DNA of 64,000 bases from Escherichia phage Murica. This document shows, one piece after another, positions 6,099 through 34,587 of the stretch. The notes under the pieces were generated by a model, which was not told the DNA's origin, searched no databases, and saw only the letters and a list, made by a program, of their open reading frames with translations. The position numbers were made by a program, and so were the translations under genes. Where the stretch lies: the sequence record NC_041871.1, one strand, 5' to 3'. Position 1 is the first letter of the stretch. Each line of letters opens with the position of its first letter.

Positions 6099-6712
6099 TG
6101 GATATTATTGTTCTTAACGCCCCACCCAGCAGTGGTAAGGATCACATTGCAGATCTCTTGTTGGAAGCTATTCCTAACTCACACCACCGTGAGGTTAAGG
6201 AGATGCTCTTCAGTGTGGCAATTAAGGCAGCTGGTGTAACTCCTCAACTCTGGAATGCACTTTATGACCGCCACTACAAAGAAGATCCTTGCCCTTTCTT
6301 AATGATAGACGGCAAGCATGTTTCTCCGCGAGAGTGGATGATCCATTGTAGTGAAAATCTGATTAAACCTATCTTTGGTGAAGATGCTTTCGGTAAGGCC
6401 GCAGTCACATCCTTGAAGAAAGATTTCCCTAAAGGTAAAGGGGTTGTTGTTTACTCCGATGGTGGATTCAAAGAGGAGCTGGCATGCCTTAGTGAGTACG
6501 CATACAGCACAGGTGGAGATCTGTTGTTGTTCCGTATTCACCGTGTAGGATATGACTGGGGAAATGATTCCAGAACCTATCTAAGTCTGGAAAAGAACGG
6601 AATAAAAGGGGTTGAGTTTGATGTTGTAAACCCTGAAGGTGCACCTTGGGAGTGTGCATCGGAGATTGTGTGCAAGTATATTGATGCTAAAGAGGCCCAA
6701 GAAGAATGTTAA
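6098..6712 (+). CDS. deoxynucleoside monophosphate kinase (T4 gp1-like)
   Basis: LNAPPSSGKDHIAD aligns with T4 dNMP kinase LSGVKRSGKDTTAD; GGAGG SD. Confidence 0.65.
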   Translation: MDIIVLNAPPSSGKDHIADLLLEAIPNSHHREVKEMLFSVAIKAAGVTPQLWNALYDRHYKEDPCPFLMIDGKHVSPREWMIHCSENLIKPIFGEDAFGKAAVTSLKKDFPKGKGVVVYSDGGFKEELACLSEYAYSTGGDLLLFRIHRVGYDWGNDSRTYLSLEKNGIKGVEFDVVNPEGAPWECASEIVCKYIDAKEAQEEC

Positions 6713-7299
6713 TCGGAATTGATGTAGATCTGACACTGGTAGATTCAGGAACAGCATGGTGGGAGTGGTTGGAGCGTTTGTATGGTCCAGCCAGTAAGAC
6801 AGTAGCTAAACCTTCTAATGGGCTAATGTATTACGATCTGTCAAAGTATTGGCCTGATCGTCCCAAAGAAAACATCATAGGACCTTTTGATTTCTGGAGT
6901 GATCCGTTCCTCTACGACTTCCTTAAGCCTGAAGAGGGGGCTATTGAGGTTATGAAAGATTTGGTGGCTCGTGGTCACAAGCTTGCATTTATCTCGGTAT
7001 GCAAGAAAGGTCACCTTGCATCTAAATCAAGGTTCTTAAAGCGTTGGACCAGTGATTTTATGGATCTGGACGATCACACCCAAGGCCACGGCTTCTACGC
7101 CACACATTTCAAAGGGAATGTGGCTGTAGATGTTATAATTGACGACAGGCATGAATACCTGAACCAATTCGCTTCACGACCTGAAGTTATTAAAATCCTA
7201 AAAGATACACCTTATGAGCAATTCGAGGAGTTAAAGGTCAGTGTTGACTATACCGCTAATAGCTGGTATAAAATAGGAAAATTTTTAGAAGGTATTTGA
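6706..7299 (+). CDS. HAD-superfamily phosphatase, putative deoxyribonucleotidase
   Basis: N-terminal DxDxT motif (GIDVDLTLVD); sits in nucleotide-salvage cluster. Confidence 0.5.
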   Translation: MLIGIDVDLTLVDSGTAWWEWLERLYGPASKTVAKPSNGLMYYDLSKYWPDRPKENIIGPFDFWSDPFLYDFLKPEEGAIEVMKDLVARGHKLAFISVCKKGHLASKSRFLKRWTSDFMDLDDHTQGHGFYATHFKGNVAVDVIIDDRHEYLNQFASRPEVIKILKDTPYEQFEELKVSVDYTANSWYKIGKFLEGI

Positions 7300-29986: not shown

Positions 29987-30013
29987 AGGACGCTCTGTGG
30001 CGTCCTTTTCTTT
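29987..30013 (+). terminator. intrinsic terminator
   Basis: AGGACGC-tctgtg-GCGTCCT then TTTCTTT. Confidence 0.6.
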
Positions 30014-30175
30014 ATCTGGTGCACGATTGCATACCTTGGACAGATAATCTCGTTACAGAGCGTTTAAGAGCTTTCTACAAACAAGTCTCTCTTTCGAGCG
30101 TAGCGAGAACGCACGTCCGTTTTGACCAAAATCACCATACGCTCGGATTTTAACCAAACCCTCGCGGCGTTGCTG

Positions 30176-30204
30176 TTGACACATTACCGCTCCCGTGATA
30201 GTAT
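30176..30204 (+). promoter_or_regulatory. sigma70-like promoter with extended -10
   Basis: TTGACA (30176-30181), 17 nt, TGaTAGTAT (-10 at 30199-30204). Confidence 0.55.
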
Positions 30205-30236
30205 CCACACACAGTTTGGAGAATATGGAATACACA

Positions 30237-30326
30237 ATGAGAACATTGTCTGAAGTTTTAGTGGTGATCCTGATGATCATTACTTCCATAGCGGCTGTTG
30301 CCGGAATACTCACGGGTGGAACATGA
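30237..30326 (+). CDS. hydrophobic leader micropeptide (29 aa)
   Basis: MRTLSEVLVVILMIITSIAAVAGILTGGT; stop overlaps next start (ATGA). Confidence 0.3.
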   Translation: MRTLSEVLVVILMIITSIAAVAGILTGGT

Positions 30327-30535
30327 TCAACACACATGCACCTGAAGAGACATCCAAAGGAGTGACCATATGTCCCTTGGCTGAGCCAGTTAGAGAGGAA
30401 AACTTAGATTCTGAGGACTCTTCATCTTCGTCCCAGACAGATCCTGAGGCTGATGACCTGACGTGGGAGGACATCGTAGATATCTGGTTCTCTATTATGC
30501 CTGAGCACGAAGAGTTCAGAGGTGGTAGACTATGA
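30323..30535 (+). CDS. hypothetical highly acidic protein
   Basis: Ser/Asp/Glu-rich (DSEDSSSSSQTDPEADD); GGGTGG SD. Confidence 0.45.
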   Translation: MINTHAPEETSKGVTICPLAEPVREENLDSEDSSSSSQTDPEADDLTWEDIVDIWFSIMPEHEEFRGGRL

Positions 30536-30655
30536 AGCACCGAGCCCACACAGGTTCCTCATGCTAAAGCATGGCCTGAAGAGGCAAACGTGTATAATTC
30601 CTGTGCATTGTGACGTATAAAACCCGTTCACACTCTCATTTCCAGAGGAGATTTT

Positions 30656-30871
30656 ATGAAGATAGAAATATTTGGTGGAGCTGACAACACTCGTGGCCTG
30701 ATTTACCTGGAATTCGATGAATCATACCTGCCAGAGGTGTTAAATATAGACTCTGTTGCTGAGGCTTTGGGAGTAAACCCTAAAGAACTCCACTCTTGTG
30801 CTGAGATCGATGGTTGGGAAGAGACCATGAACATTGATTTCAGTGAAGTAGAGGATGAACCGCTGGACTGA
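30656..30871 (+). CDS. small acidic protein
   Basis: MKIEIFGG...; GAGGAG SD; last + strand gene before the noncoding region. Confidence 0.5.
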   Translation: MKIEIFGGADNTRGLIYLEFDESYLPEVLNIDSVAEALGVNPKELHSCAEIDGWEETMNIDFSEVEDEPLD

Positions 30872-30962
30872 CACACAATTAGCTGCCCGGCTAAAGTGCT
30901 GGAGCACCTACAATACATCTTTCAACTAAATTTCCCACCACCACAATCACTTACCTTCCACA

Positions 30963-31025
30963 CATGACTGTTTGCTTGTTTAGTGAGCAGTCATGCCTTG
31001 ACATTCTTGCCTATCCTGATAAAAT
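30963..31025 (+). promoter_or_regulatory. sigma70-like promoter with upstream inverted repeat, firing into ORF-free region
   Basis: CATGACTG (30963-30970) / CAGTCATG (30988-30995); TTGACA (30998-31003), 16 nt, TAAAAT (31020-31025). Confidence 0.45.
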
Positions 31026-32349
31026 TAAGTTCTTCTCTTTTCTTTTACCGAGTAATTCGGGTTTTCTGTTCTCTTCGGTTTGAAGGGGTATGGAGATACA
31101 CCTGAGTGAACATGGTGAACAACCGAACATTTGGCTATGGCATTAGCATGGCGAAGCGGACGGGTGACGAAAGAGGGGCCGGAGGACACCAGTCACTGCC
31201 ATATGATATATGGGTGATAACCTGAAGAGTCTGAATAAGTGTTTAAGTACCAGTCAGAGGAAAAGGTGAATGGTAGCCGAAGGGGGAGGGGGGTTTCTTG
31301 TATCTTTAATTTGTATATTATGTATACACTCGTAAACCAATCTCATCTGAATCTGTTTACCACACAAAGTAGATAGGGACAAATATCACCTATTAAACTT
31401 GAATTATTTATAGAAAATACCACAACACCACTTAAGTCTTTGATTTTACACACAAATCCTACAGATATTCAACCTCTATATTTAACATATTCATAACATA
31501 TTCCATACTCTACCTGTCTGATCAATTTACCCAACCACATCCTCCATATTTTCCCTGTCTGTACCACCCCTGCCCCGCCGGGAGTCCCGTCATATCTGGC
31601 TTTCCAGCAAATATCACACCCACAAATATCATTGCCTGAAGAGGGTTTCATCCCATAGTACATGCCTTACCTGAAGAGCGCTTCATACACCACGTAAATT
31701 TTTTAATTTACCCCCCCTCCCCGCCGCCGGAGTGGTCGGCTTTTCCCACACAGGCCTGAAGAGTCAGCCAGAAATATCTGAACAGGTCCAGTTATACCAC
31801 GATTTTGACCTGACCGACAGGAGTGCTGCCAGGCGGACGGAATGGGAATACTTCTCATTCTTATAATAATTCTCAAATATCGAGGCAGTGAGGCAAATTA
31901 ATAGGTGAGGCCGTTCACACAGTGGCACAACATTTGCAATCTATTTTGTGAGGGTGAATGAGAATACCTATCATTGTGAGAACTGTTATCATTACGGGCA
32001 ATTTAACATAATACCCATTATGCGCACCACTGGCGATCCATACAGGGATTGATAACATGAGTTACAGTTTACGCATATAACAATCATATTTCTTACTATT
32101 TGTGTGGGATATAGTTAGCAGCCGATAGATTAGATATTGACCTGTGGACTTCCAACCGTCTAGACGTCTAAACGCCCACACAACAAGGATTATACATACA
32201 TTACTGAATGTAAACAGGGCCGCAAAAATGCTACCATACCAGATTGTAAATTTTTCATGCAGCACTTGACAAAGAGGAGAAAAACTTGTCTGACACAATA
32301 TGACATACTGGGCACATTAAACACACTTTAGACTTAATTGACATGCCTG

Positions 32350-32469
32350 ACTGTTTACGCTGTCACTATTCACGCTATTACTATTCACTCCCTTTACTGT
32401 TCACGCTCTTACTGTTTACATGCTTAATGGTTTACATGACCAATAGTTTACATAGCTAACTATTTACAT
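32350..32469. repeat. iteron array: 8 direct 11-bp repeats at 15-16 bp period
   Basis: actgtttacgc, actattcacgc, actattcactc, actgttcacgc, actgtttacat, atggtttacat, atagtttacat, actatttacat starting at about 32350, 32365, 32380, 32396, 32411, 32427, 32443, 32459. Confidence 0.8.
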
Positions 32470-32481
32470 GGAAATGATAAG

Positions 32482-32762
32482 CCATGCCATTCGTTTGCAT
32501 GATAACTATTAGCAAGTTAATAATCTTTCGCTGGCTATGCCAGGTGACCTTTGGTCACCCCTTCGGGTGTTTCTATGACATAATATAAAAGCAGGGCAAC
32601 TATTAGAAGATCTATAGTTGCCTTGCTTGTTATGTCATGATTAACTAAATACAAGGCAACTATGATCTGATTAATAGTTTGCAAACAAACTATCACGGGG
32701 GGTGATGGTTACTGCTTTTATATTATGTCGCGACTCCGTCGCGCCATGCCATTCGTTTGCAT
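32482..32762. repeat. nested direct/inverted repeat complex
   Basis: 19-bp direct repeat CCATGCCATTCGTTTGCAT (32482 and 32744); 18-bp inverted repeat TGACATAATATAAAAGCAG (32576) / CTGCTTTTATATTATGTC (32712); palindromes GGTGACC-ttt-GGTCACC (32543-32559) and GGCAACTAT-N10-ATAGTTGCC (32595-32622). Confidence 0.75.
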
Positions 32763-33388
32763 AGTTGCCTTATTGTTACAGATAAAATAATTGTATTGTT
32801 AATTATTTCTTATCTTTCTCTTAGTCATCTAATGATTCCAGTCAGTATAGTAATGTACAGTAAACATTAGACGACTAAAGATTTATATGCTTATAATAAC
32901 TTACAGTGACAATTTCGGACTGTTTACGAAAAATGTTGACACCTGAGCCGATTTATGTTATGCAGTTTACACGAATAATTATTTTATGCAGGTATTGACT
33001 ATTCCGTTATTCTATGGTCGGAATAAATACTTAGCAGTCTATAGAATGGTGACGCTACGTGAATTCTGGAATTTAGTGGCTATAGTTATACCCGATTTTT
33101 CACGTAGAACACGCTTTTGTGGTTATGTAAGTGTATGACTTATAAAGATTTTTAGTTGTTGACAAGACACTGAAGATATGCATCAGGTTAAATTTTGTGC
33201 AATAGCTGCATTACGTGCAATTTTGGAAGGAAAAACGTGTAAAAATGGCCCTGCTACCACACAATGAAAGATTATGCAATAGCTATTTTATATGTATGTT
33301 TGTACAGTGTGTGGGATTGATGGCTAGTCAATTATTCCACTTGCCAGGTGGGGACGTTTGTGGTAGGAGAAATACAGACAAAAAGAAA

Positions 33389-33406
33389 GGGGCCTTTTAA
33401 AGCCCC
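33389..33406 (-). terminator. terminator closing the - strand arm
   Basis: GGGGC-cttttaaa-GCCCC with U-tract on - strand (complement of AAAAGAAA 33381-33388). Confidence 0.5.
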
Positions 33407-33425
33407 TGATAGTTTAGTTAAGAAA

Positions 33426-33845
33426 TTATAATGATTCGTATATTTCATAGATTCGATTTGCCAGGTCGTTACGGTAGCGGAATTTTTCCTCACGTTTGAT
33501 CATCAGATCTTTAAAGCCATATTCTTTAAGCACTTCATTAACTTTATGGCGGCATACCTTCATATTATCCTGTGCGTCACCAATAAACTTGTTGCTATGG
33601 TGCATGGCTTTAATTTCTTCTTCCAGGACCAGGGCAACTATGCGGACCGGATCAAGCTGATAGGCGGTAACATCAATGCGGCATTGTAAACGGCTTTTTA
33701 CGTCTGCCACCGGATATACTGCAACCTCTTCCCCGTCAACATTGACAATAATTAGTTTACCATCGATTTCGAATCCTTTCGCCGCCGGACCGTGACAAAA
33801 AGCGTTATCAAAGCTATATGCCGGATTATTAGATTTAATGTTCAT
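33426..33845 (-). CDS. hypothetical protein
   Basis: ATG with AAGAGGT SD; 139 codons. Confidence 0.5.
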   Translation of the reverse strand: MNIKSNNPAYSFDNAFCHGPAAKGFEIDGKLIIVNVDGEEVAVYPVADVKSRLQCRIDVTAYQLDPVRIVALVLEEEIKAMHHSNKFIGDAQDNMKVCRHKVNEVLKEYGFKDLMIKREEKFRYRNDLANRIYEIYESL

Positions 33846-33894
33846 GGTGTTTTTACCTCTTAGTTAATTTTCTTACAACTTCCCTTCAAAAAAG

Positions 33895-33923
33895 AATATA
33901 GCAAAACTGCCGATCCTTGTCAA
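33895..33923 (-). promoter_or_regulatory. sigma70-like promoter (- strand)
   Basis: On - strand TTGACA (33918-33923), 17 nt, TATATT (33895-33900); -35 sits in palindrome CCTTG-gttga-CAAGG. Confidence 0.45.
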
Positions 33924-33990
33924 CCAAGGATAGCATAATTTTTATGTGATCAAGGGGCTTTATTGCCCCCTGATCGTGCAACTTGTTGTA

Positions 33991-34254
33991 TTATTTGTTA
34001 CTCATCCAGTTTTCCCAGGCTGCCTGATAATCTGCCTCACTGCGGCGGATCTCTTCTTGCTCTTCAAGTCGGATCTCTTCTTCCAGGTACCCCAAGATAT
34101 CGGCTTTCTTGGTCTGGCGTAACATCCAATCATCTTTTTTACGGGTAAAGATCTTATATGCTTTCTCGCAAACCTCTTTTTTGCTACCTTTTTGGACTTC
34201 AAGAACTTTGTAGGCCATGTACTGAACTAGTTTAAGCTGATCAAGACGTTTCAT
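33991..34254 (-). CDS. hypothetical charged protein
   Basis: SD AAAGAGGT; 87 codons. Confidence 0.5.
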   Translation of the reverse strand: MKRLDQLKLVQYMAYKVLEVQKGSKKEVCEKAYKIFTRKKDDWMLRQTKKADILGYLEEEIRLEEQEEIRRSEADYQAAWENWMSNK

Positions 34255-34314
34255 GATGTTTACCTCTTTGTGTGGTTCTGATTAGTGGGCCTCCCGGCCC
34301 GTGTCATTATCTTA

Positions 34315-34587
34315 TTACTTACGGCGGCAGAATTCAAGCGTTTTTAATTGATAATCTTCCTCAGCCTGGAGTACAACCGCCTCGATCATTTCGTTGGCAT
34401 TGTTGAAGCCATACCCTTTAGCGAACTCGTCCGCACCACCTTCGTGATCATGTTCTGCGTTCATCGCTTCCACAAAATGGAATTCCAAATTGTTGAGGTA
34501 GGGGCTTGATGTGCCGTCTTCTTTTTCGATGAGATCCCAAATAGCATTAAAACGTGATTCGACTTCTTGATTAATCCAGCTTGACAT
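34315..34587 (-). CDS. hypothetical acidic protein
   Basis: SD AGAAGAGAGGAAA; 90 codons. Confidence 0.5.
   Translation of the reverse strand: MSSWINQEVESRFNAIWDLIEKEDGTSSPYLNNLEFHFVEAMNAEHDHEGGADEFAKGYGFNNANEMIEAVVLQAEEDYQLKTLEFCRRK

Follow-up and report, generated by a model that had tools for sequence, protein, structure and literature searches.

A periodic array of short direct repeats next to the inferred terminal-repeat boundary of Vequintavirus genomes

The junction region

We have analyzed a window of 64,000 nucleotides (the whole stretch of DNA studied here, from Escherichia phage Murica, NC_041871.1). It belongs to Vequintavirus, a virulent group, and codes for a family-A DNA polymerase and a DnaB-like helicase. 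The central region of the window, which we call the junction, matched 118 phage records. Practically all were Vequintavirus (rV5-like E. coli myophages), and JLBYU08, with 96% identity, came closest. According to two independent reports, vequintavirus genomes end at defined points and carry short terminal repeats there; in one report those of HdK5 and EdH4 measure 458 bp, and the published direct terminal repeats (DTR) of HdK5, EdH4 and Gotham range over 458–459 bp. When the ends of the HdK5 record were mapped by blastn, the left physical end fell at position 31832 of the window and the right one at 32290. The first 25 bases of the HdK5 record recur 459 bp before the end of the record, the Gotham record starts at the same point as that of HdK5, and the start of YN3 maps to about the same base. 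The position of the DTR in the window is thus carried over from relatives by homology. Since the HdK5 ends map to these two positions, what had been noticed in a sequence-only reading as an "ORF-free centre" corresponds to a concatemer junction, and the window would read through the place where the terminase cuts. The features found there are collected in Table 1.

Table 1. Features of the junction and their positions in the window
Feature	Position	Strand	Description
DTR equivalent, 459 bp	31832..32290	.	HdK5 record start and end mapped by blastn
Isolated unit TTACAGTTTACGC	32062..32074	+	Inside the DTR; matrix score 15.7
Leftward sigma-70-like promoter, TTGTCA-18-TACAAT	32243..32272	-	Consensus match only, 10/12
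Array 1	32291..32349	+	About seven TGRCAY-type units, step of about 10 bp
Array 2	32350..32469	+	Eight direct units, core A-Y-T-R-TTYAC-R-Y, steps of 15/16 bp
Box 1	32481..32500	+	Left copy of a perfect 20-bp direct repeat, GCCATGCCATTCGTTTGCAT
Palindromic block	32577..32729	.	18-bp perfect inverted repeat at its outer ends
Box 2	32743..32762	+	Right copy of the 20-bp direct repeat, GCCATGCCATTCGTTTGCAT
A+T-rich stretch, 28.6% G+C	32781..33000	.	Contains sigma-70-like hexamer pairs
Isolated unit GGACTGTTTACGA	32917..32929	+	Beyond the palindromic block; matrix score 13.3

In rV5 the homologous stretch is an unannotated gap of 2.6 kb between gp158 and gp159, drawn as a "non-coding" box in the rV5 genome paper, in the text of which the word "repeat" does not appear. 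The genes to the left of this gap read rightwards and those to the right read leftwards, so that both arms converge on it, and the cumulative GC skew has its maximum at the junction gap. Terminator-like hairpins flank the junction (31048-31060 on the + strand and 33407-33388 on the - strand) and could insulate it from the transcription of the arms. No protein-coding gene was found in the first 1.1 kb from the left end. The replisome genes do lie on the adjacent arm, as the sequence-only reading had pointed out, but at about 20 kb from array 2.

Two arrays of short direct repeats start from the inner boundary of the DTR. Array 1 begins exactly at this boundary (...AACTTGTC / TGACA..., position +1) and leads directly into array 2, whose first unit begins at +60, that is, 60 bp inside the inner DTR boundary, in the unique DNA by the left genome end. 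In concatemers array 2 sits immediately beyond the inferred right-end cut of the terminase, from which these 60 bp separate it, and its position is therefore the one expected of a terminase pac or cos site. The number of array 1 units varied between 3 and 10 among relatives. The 5' half of each TTYAC unit of array 2 (TnACTG) looks like the TGRCAY motif of array 1.

Downstream of the arrays, boxes 1 and 2 enclose GC hairpins, which are optional, and a palindromic block with hardly any variation. The interior of this block contains several GGCAACTAT/ATAGTTGCC sites, among them operator-like palindromes of the form GGCAACTAT-N10-ATAGTTGCC, and its fold was far better than those of shuffled sequences, with z-scores of -7.4 and -8.3 on the two strands. 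It is this palindromic block, rather than array 2, that gives the impression of being the conserved core of the junction. The GC hairpins are three in a row (32525-32570) and end with a terminator-like CACCCCTTCGGGTG plus TTTCT. The window, rV5 and I29 have this module and JLBYU08, isim and Alma lack it; it is thus optional, an insertion into the space that separates box 1 from the palindromic block. The A+T-rich stretch sits about 310 bp from array 2.

Structure of array 2

Array 2 has all its units on the + strand. In order they are ACTGTTTACGC, ACTATTCACGC, ACTATTCACTC and ACTGTTCACGC (units 1 to 4), followed by ACTGTTTACAT, ATGGTTTACAT, ATAGTTTACAT and ACTATTTACAT (units 5 to 8). The TTYAC cores follow each other at 15, 15, 16, 15, 16, 16 and 16 bp, and Tandem Repeats Finder splits the array into two abutting ones, with period 15 (32350-32416, score 69) and period 16 (32414-32453, score 52). 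As a null model we used 300 dinucleotide-preserving shuffles of the window, in which the longest chain of cores at steps of 15/16 bp was three, versus eight in the real sequence. The array described in the sequence-only reading is therefore real, steps included. Its 11-mer, A-Y-W-R-T-T-Y-A-C-R-Y, is exact in six of the eight units, with units 3 and 6 off by one base, and had two further matches in the rest of the 64 kb (3.0 were expected in the whole window). The two supposed site subtypes, with endings CGC/CTC in the first four units and CAT in the last four, are a true description of the window, but relatives mix ACAC and ACGC endings.

No ORF of at least 40 aa overlaps array 2, which bears out the ORF-free setting claimed before. 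The fold of 32291-32480 gave z-scores of +0.78 and +0.85 for the two strands, nothing beyond shuffles, and a Rfam scan of 30000-34500 with E values up to 1 produced three chance-level matches, none of them on array 2. A structured RNA was rejected on these grounds. An array with no fold, ORF or Rfam match fits a set of sites in duplex DNA.

Several candidates for a protein that would bind such sites were considered. The core resembles the half-sites of some host response regulators, namely PhoP (TGTTTA), CpxR (GTAAA, reverse complement TTTAC), OmpR (TTTACAT) and TorR (CTGTTCATAT). They were rejected because these regulators bind tandem sites at 10–11 bp, not 15–16 bp. A Pfam scan of the ten flanking small ORFs gave no matches at or above the curated cut-offs, and no initiator-like or DNA-binding domain was found in the neighboring ORFs scanned; a GapR-like match (E 0.04) in the homologue of the rV5 'transcriptional regulator' was not significant. 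These scans bear on the partition site that had been suggested as one possible role. A centromere-like site for a ParB/ParR-type protein would have some likeness to array 2 in form only, while the phage is a virulent myophage with defined terminal repeats and the ten neighboring ORFs gave no match to Par-type Pfam families. We consider this explanation very unlikely, bordering on negligible.

Conservation among relatives

The segment going from the DTR boundary to box 1 was read in 26 relatives; an extra search in IMG/VR and metagenomes provided only three additional distinct loci. With the exception of V18, units of the array 2 type were found in all 26 relatives at the same place and in the same orientation, in numbers that went from 0 to about 11. 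In V18 there are no units, and a poly(A) run stands where array 2 and box 1 would be. FFH2 has one or two units and LL12 has two; isim, Alma, HdK5, nimi, FV3 and a human-gut metagenome contig have four to six; and rV5 and JES2013 reach about 11 if decayed units are counted. At least three spacer lineages could be distinguished in the arrays of the relatives.

To describe the conservation of the unit we used 58 distinct units from 21 genomes. Among the positions that were not used in selecting the units, -4 was A in 56 of the 58, and -3, -2, -1, +5 and +6 were also biased, versus only 0.06–0.28 bit at the spacer positions. The steps between units were 15 bp in 40 cases and 16 bp in 44, together 84 of the 99 intervals. 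The rest were multiples of the step, which mark places where a unit has decayed. Because core and step are kept while the spacers vary as freely as random sequence would, the comparison indicates selection on the motif and on its spacing. A neutral minisatellite, i.e., a functionless array kept by slippage or unequal crossing-over, would be in line with the wide variation in copy number between close relatives and with the lack of the array in some of them. However, neutral repeats homogenize whole units, whereas here the spacers look random and belong to three lineages, and isolated units outside the array are conserved as well (see below). We take the pattern as a signature of selection on core and spacing, and consider a neutral minisatellite quite improbable. 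To this extent the earlier proposal of an array of protein-binding sites has held up: the signature is there, with core and spacing kept and spacers free, but the ten neighboring ORFs scanned showed no initiator-like domain.

A weight matrix was built from the relatives only, leaving out the window and JLBYU08. It recovered all eight units of the window. Nine sites in the 64 kb scored 13 or more, eight of them within 31832-33000, and to the left of 31832 there were none at this score. Two isolated units (Table 1) are conserved: the one at 32062 was kept in all 20 relatives for which an alignment anchor was found, and the one at 32917 in all 23 genomes compared, V18 included in both cases. It appears from this that the factor recognizing the units is conserved even where array 2 has been lost. 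A TGACAC motif follows the isolated unit at 32917 by 9 bp, and a weaker TTYAC-type unit is found at 32963-32972.

The isolated units bring up the possibility that the array is made of transcription-factor sites, with a protein that regulates junction promoters from the single units and an array that acts as a high-avidity reservoir or silencer. The conserved units at 32917 and 32963 flank a conserved stretch containing TTGACA, there is a leftward promoter-like site at the DTR edge, and a dispensable array of variable number would suit a modulatory element. Yet the 'promoter' between these units has a poor -10 element, TATGCA, and what reads as TTGACA there may be nothing more than a TGACAC unit of the array 1 type; in general, TTGACA hexamers close to the arrays make better sense as TGACAY units. 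The sigma-70 promoter scan of the region found no enrichment (11 sites versus 10.8 expected). Neither is there a convincing gene downstream, only ORFs of 50 and 61 aa, the former with no recognizable RBS. All considered, a role in transcription seems unlikely to us. By analogy with T7 gp4, TGACAC (complement GTGTC) could also be a primase recognition site. The putative promoter at 32243-32272 is located at the inner edge of the DTR and points leftwards into it.

Two more distant comparisons indicate how far the array extends. A divergent relative of 140 kb (L004) has the same order of junction elements as the window. Its array 1 is made of AGGCATAC units in place of TGRCAY, with a step of 11 bp, and neither its 20-bp boxes nor its 18-bp inverted repeat has the sequence found in the window, the arms of the inverted repeat being, in our reading, still complementary. 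Only about two degenerate units are found at the position of array 2, and two good units, 16 bp apart, lie inside the DTR equivalent, at the place of the isolated unit at 32062. In Phapecoctavirus (Mt1B1_P17) the corresponding place holds a terminal repeat of 328 bp, and there is a box-palindrome-box module that appears analogous to that of the window; no periodic TTYAC array was found in its junction. Because both keep the layout and not the array, array 2 would thus be an expandable accessory, specific to Vequintavirus, of a junction architecture that is more widely conserved. The array has apparently not been described in these phages before.

A separate observation in L004 is a set of three perfect DnaA boxes, TTATCCACA, within 40 bp (6845-6884, - strand), inside the DTR equivalent. 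They recall those in the non-coding region of the T5 terminal repeat. There were no DnaA boxes in the junction of the vequintavirus relatives checked, and no exact one in the junction of the window.

Comparison with known systems

The closest analogue of array 2 that we have found is the short-repeat array at the left end of T7, a likeness that we regard as architectural and not as homology. Reading the T7 genome directly (NC_001604), about 12 CCTAAAG units with a 13-bp step are found at nt 175-340, after the 160-bp terminal repeat. They start at +15 from the terminal repeat, and the leftward E. coli promoter A0 is annotated inside the array. We take these to be the arrays named SRL and SRR, which flank the 160-bp terminal repetition and were reportedly described by Dunn and Studier in 1983. 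Our literature search found no usable descriptions of SRL/SRR or of pacB in T7, and we know of no established function for the SRL array. T7 and Vequintavirus share a short exact terminal repeat and an array of short units, all in the same orientation, that starts within tens of bp of the inner boundary of the repeat, in unique non-coding DNA, and has a strict step of less than two helical turns. The A0 promoter inside SRL parallels the leftward promoter-like site at 32243-32272. T7 also uses a family-A DNA polymerase with a DnaB-like helicase, as the window does. The differences are equally clear. CCTAAAG and ACTRTTYAC are not related in sequence, the T7 step measures 13 bp instead of 15–16 bp, and T7, a podovirus, has further copies of its motif within the terminal repeat and towards the right end, whereas in the window, a myovirus, the right-end side carries a different repeat, CCTGAAGAG.

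The sequence-only reading had put a replication origin first. Array 2 would then be a set of iterons to which a phage initiator binds cooperatively in order to open A+T-rich DNA or the palindrome and load the DnaB-like helicase. As in the iteron origins of lambda (ori), P1 (oriR), P4 (ori/crr) and the plasmid Rep systems, the array consists of direct repeats (at least three) with a conserved core and regular spacing. An A+T-rich stretch that might serve for unwinding lies within a few hundred bp, preceded by a structured palindromic block and provided with promoter-like sites. The T7 promoter phiOL is annotated just past the SRL array, and secondary replication origins of T7 are linked to phiOL and phiOR; one relative, L004, has the three DnaA boxes in its junction. 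The typical step of Rep iterons, about two helical turns (some 21–23 bp), is in contrast not that of array 2, and the array also departs from these origins in having no adjacent initiator gene among the ORFs scanned (a small unrecognized initiator is conceivable), no DnaA boxes in the junction of the window, and no fixed presence in all close relatives. The sequence-only reading had expected to find the array in close relatives that replicate normally, and this is where V18, with no units, and FFH2 and LL12, with one or two, speak against an essential origin. Besides, the arms converge and the cumulative skew has its maximum at this place; for the rV5 authors changes in skew only track transcription. 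The origin has therefore lost its leading position among the explanations, and we consider it unlikely, to the same degree as the transcriptional role. These objections concern the array as classical iterons; an origin somewhere in the junction stays plausible in view of the palindromic block, the A+T-rich stretch and the phiOL promoter near the left end of T7.

A looser analogue than T7 is the 'repeat region 3' of T5, with its injection-stop signal at the inner end of a 10-kb terminal repeat. There too a non-coding region of more than 1 kb lies over the inner boundary of the terminal repeat, with direct repeats (DRD, 9 copies), palindromes and inverted repeats that are kept across relatives. 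The T5 direct repeats are irregularly spaced (25–344 bp apart), unlike array 2; T5 has paired DnaA boxes, whereas the window junction has none; and its terminal repeat, of 10 kb against 459 bp in the window, carries pre-early genes. By analogy, array 2 might be a DNA-entry element, a nucleoprotein or stop structure at the left end that is met during the ejection of the genome, as has been proposed for T5. The similar layout of both junctions and the DnaA boxes of L004 would agree with it. Nevertheless, the first 1.1 kb offers no protein-coding gene to be expressed during a pause, the injection-stop model of T5 is itself in silico, and V18 dispenses with the array. We consider such a role improbable.

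Repeated short motifs are also typical of terminase sites, such as the R sites of lambda cosB, pacL and pacR of SPP1 and the pac hexamers of P1. Like them, the arrays of the junction lie by a cleavage position, at 0–60 bp from the right-end cut. The sites of lambda, SPP1 and P1 are, however, essential and fixed in number, whereas array 2 varies between 0 and 11 units.

A possible role at the genome end

Our best explanation, which we hold tentatively and at somewhat less than an even chance, is that array 2 is an accessory platform of binding sites at the DTR boundary. Its units would be docking sites in duplex DNA for a sequence-specific protein, probably encoded by the phage, with each core of 11–13 bp binding one protein unit. 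At an average step of 15.5 bp, neighboring proteins would sit on opposite sides of the helix and alternate ones in phase again (31 bp, three turns), so that a regular multi-protein complex could form by the DTR boundary. Together with the TGRCAY array of 10-bp step, this complex might assist the terminase in docking, or in halting and cutting, at the correct edge of the repeat. Another possibility is that it organizes the newly formed left end. The sequences themselves show the sites with their period, their pattern of conservation, their variable number and their place relative to the DTR. We infer both the binding and the kind of protein from the pattern of the units, and what points to packaging or end processing is the position of the array.

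The packaging site that had been proposed before is therefore retained in part. Its location fits, since the array is found at the concatemer junction and 60 bp from the inner DTR boundary, but the lack of array 2 in V18 argues against an absolute requirement for packaging, and with the nearly complete loss in FFH2 and LL12 the array cannot be an essential pac signal. It would rather act as an accessory element of the dosage type. For the same two reasons, that the array adjoins a physical end and that some viable relatives do without it, an accessory genome-end or packaging element is more likely than an essential replication origin.

A bolder version of the platform, about which we are rather doubtful, is that arrays 1 and 2 jointly form an undescribed nucleoprotein complex that marks the boundary, showing a terminase of the T7 type where the repeat ends. 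Such a complex would dock the terminase or stall the packaging motor so that the cut is made exactly at 32290/32291. If this were the case, the register of 1.5 turns would be a new mode of cooperative site arrangement, vequintaviruses would be a tractable system to study how a phage measures and duplicates a short exact terminal repeat, and the purpose of the T7 SRL array would be concerned as well. To our knowledge, the recognition and duplication of such repeats are still poorly understood, even for T7.

Irrespective of its role, array 2 is a strictly periodic array of sites that is selectively maintained and yet dispensable, placed right at a repeat boundary, within a "non-coding" junction of 2.5 kb that the rV5 genome paper left as an unexplained box. 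It provides a concrete cis element to delete or transplant, with V18, FFH2 and LL12 as natural deletion variants for comparison, and a practical marker to orient and terminate Vequintavirus assemblies. The case also advises caution: genome ends should be located before any phage repeat array is called an origin. The rV5-like phages are common therapeutic and typing phages.

Other repeats and records

On the right-genome-end side of the DTR, the 9-mer CCTGAAGAG appears in six irregularly spaced copies at 30341-31763 (+ strand), with three more elsewhere in the 64 kb. L004, the divergent relative, has it repeated as GGCCTGAAGAG in the equivalent position. These repeats may correspond, at the right end, to the arrays of the left end.

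Within the DTR, a palindromic stretch, ctAGACGTCTaaacg, is found at 32157-32175. It contains the octamer AGACGTCT, which we take to be the consensus met-box of MetJ and which may be a coincidence. In the DTR regions of Phapecoctavirus (L005, about 6430-6650, and L034, 55-75 and 235-255) there are sequences, for example GAGAATAATTATCATTATC, that presumably resemble the Fur-box consensus, and a weaker version is present in the vequintavirus DTR at about 31958-31995.

I29 (L028, 301-1259) carries about 550 bp of extra DNA within or beside the DTR equivalent. It is located upstream of the arrays, and an array expansion was rejected for this reason. Finally, 18 records named 'Campylobacter phage' (UNVERIFIED and unannotated) were about 90% identical to E. 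coli vequintaviruses across the junction, and are probably mislabelled or contaminating coliphages.
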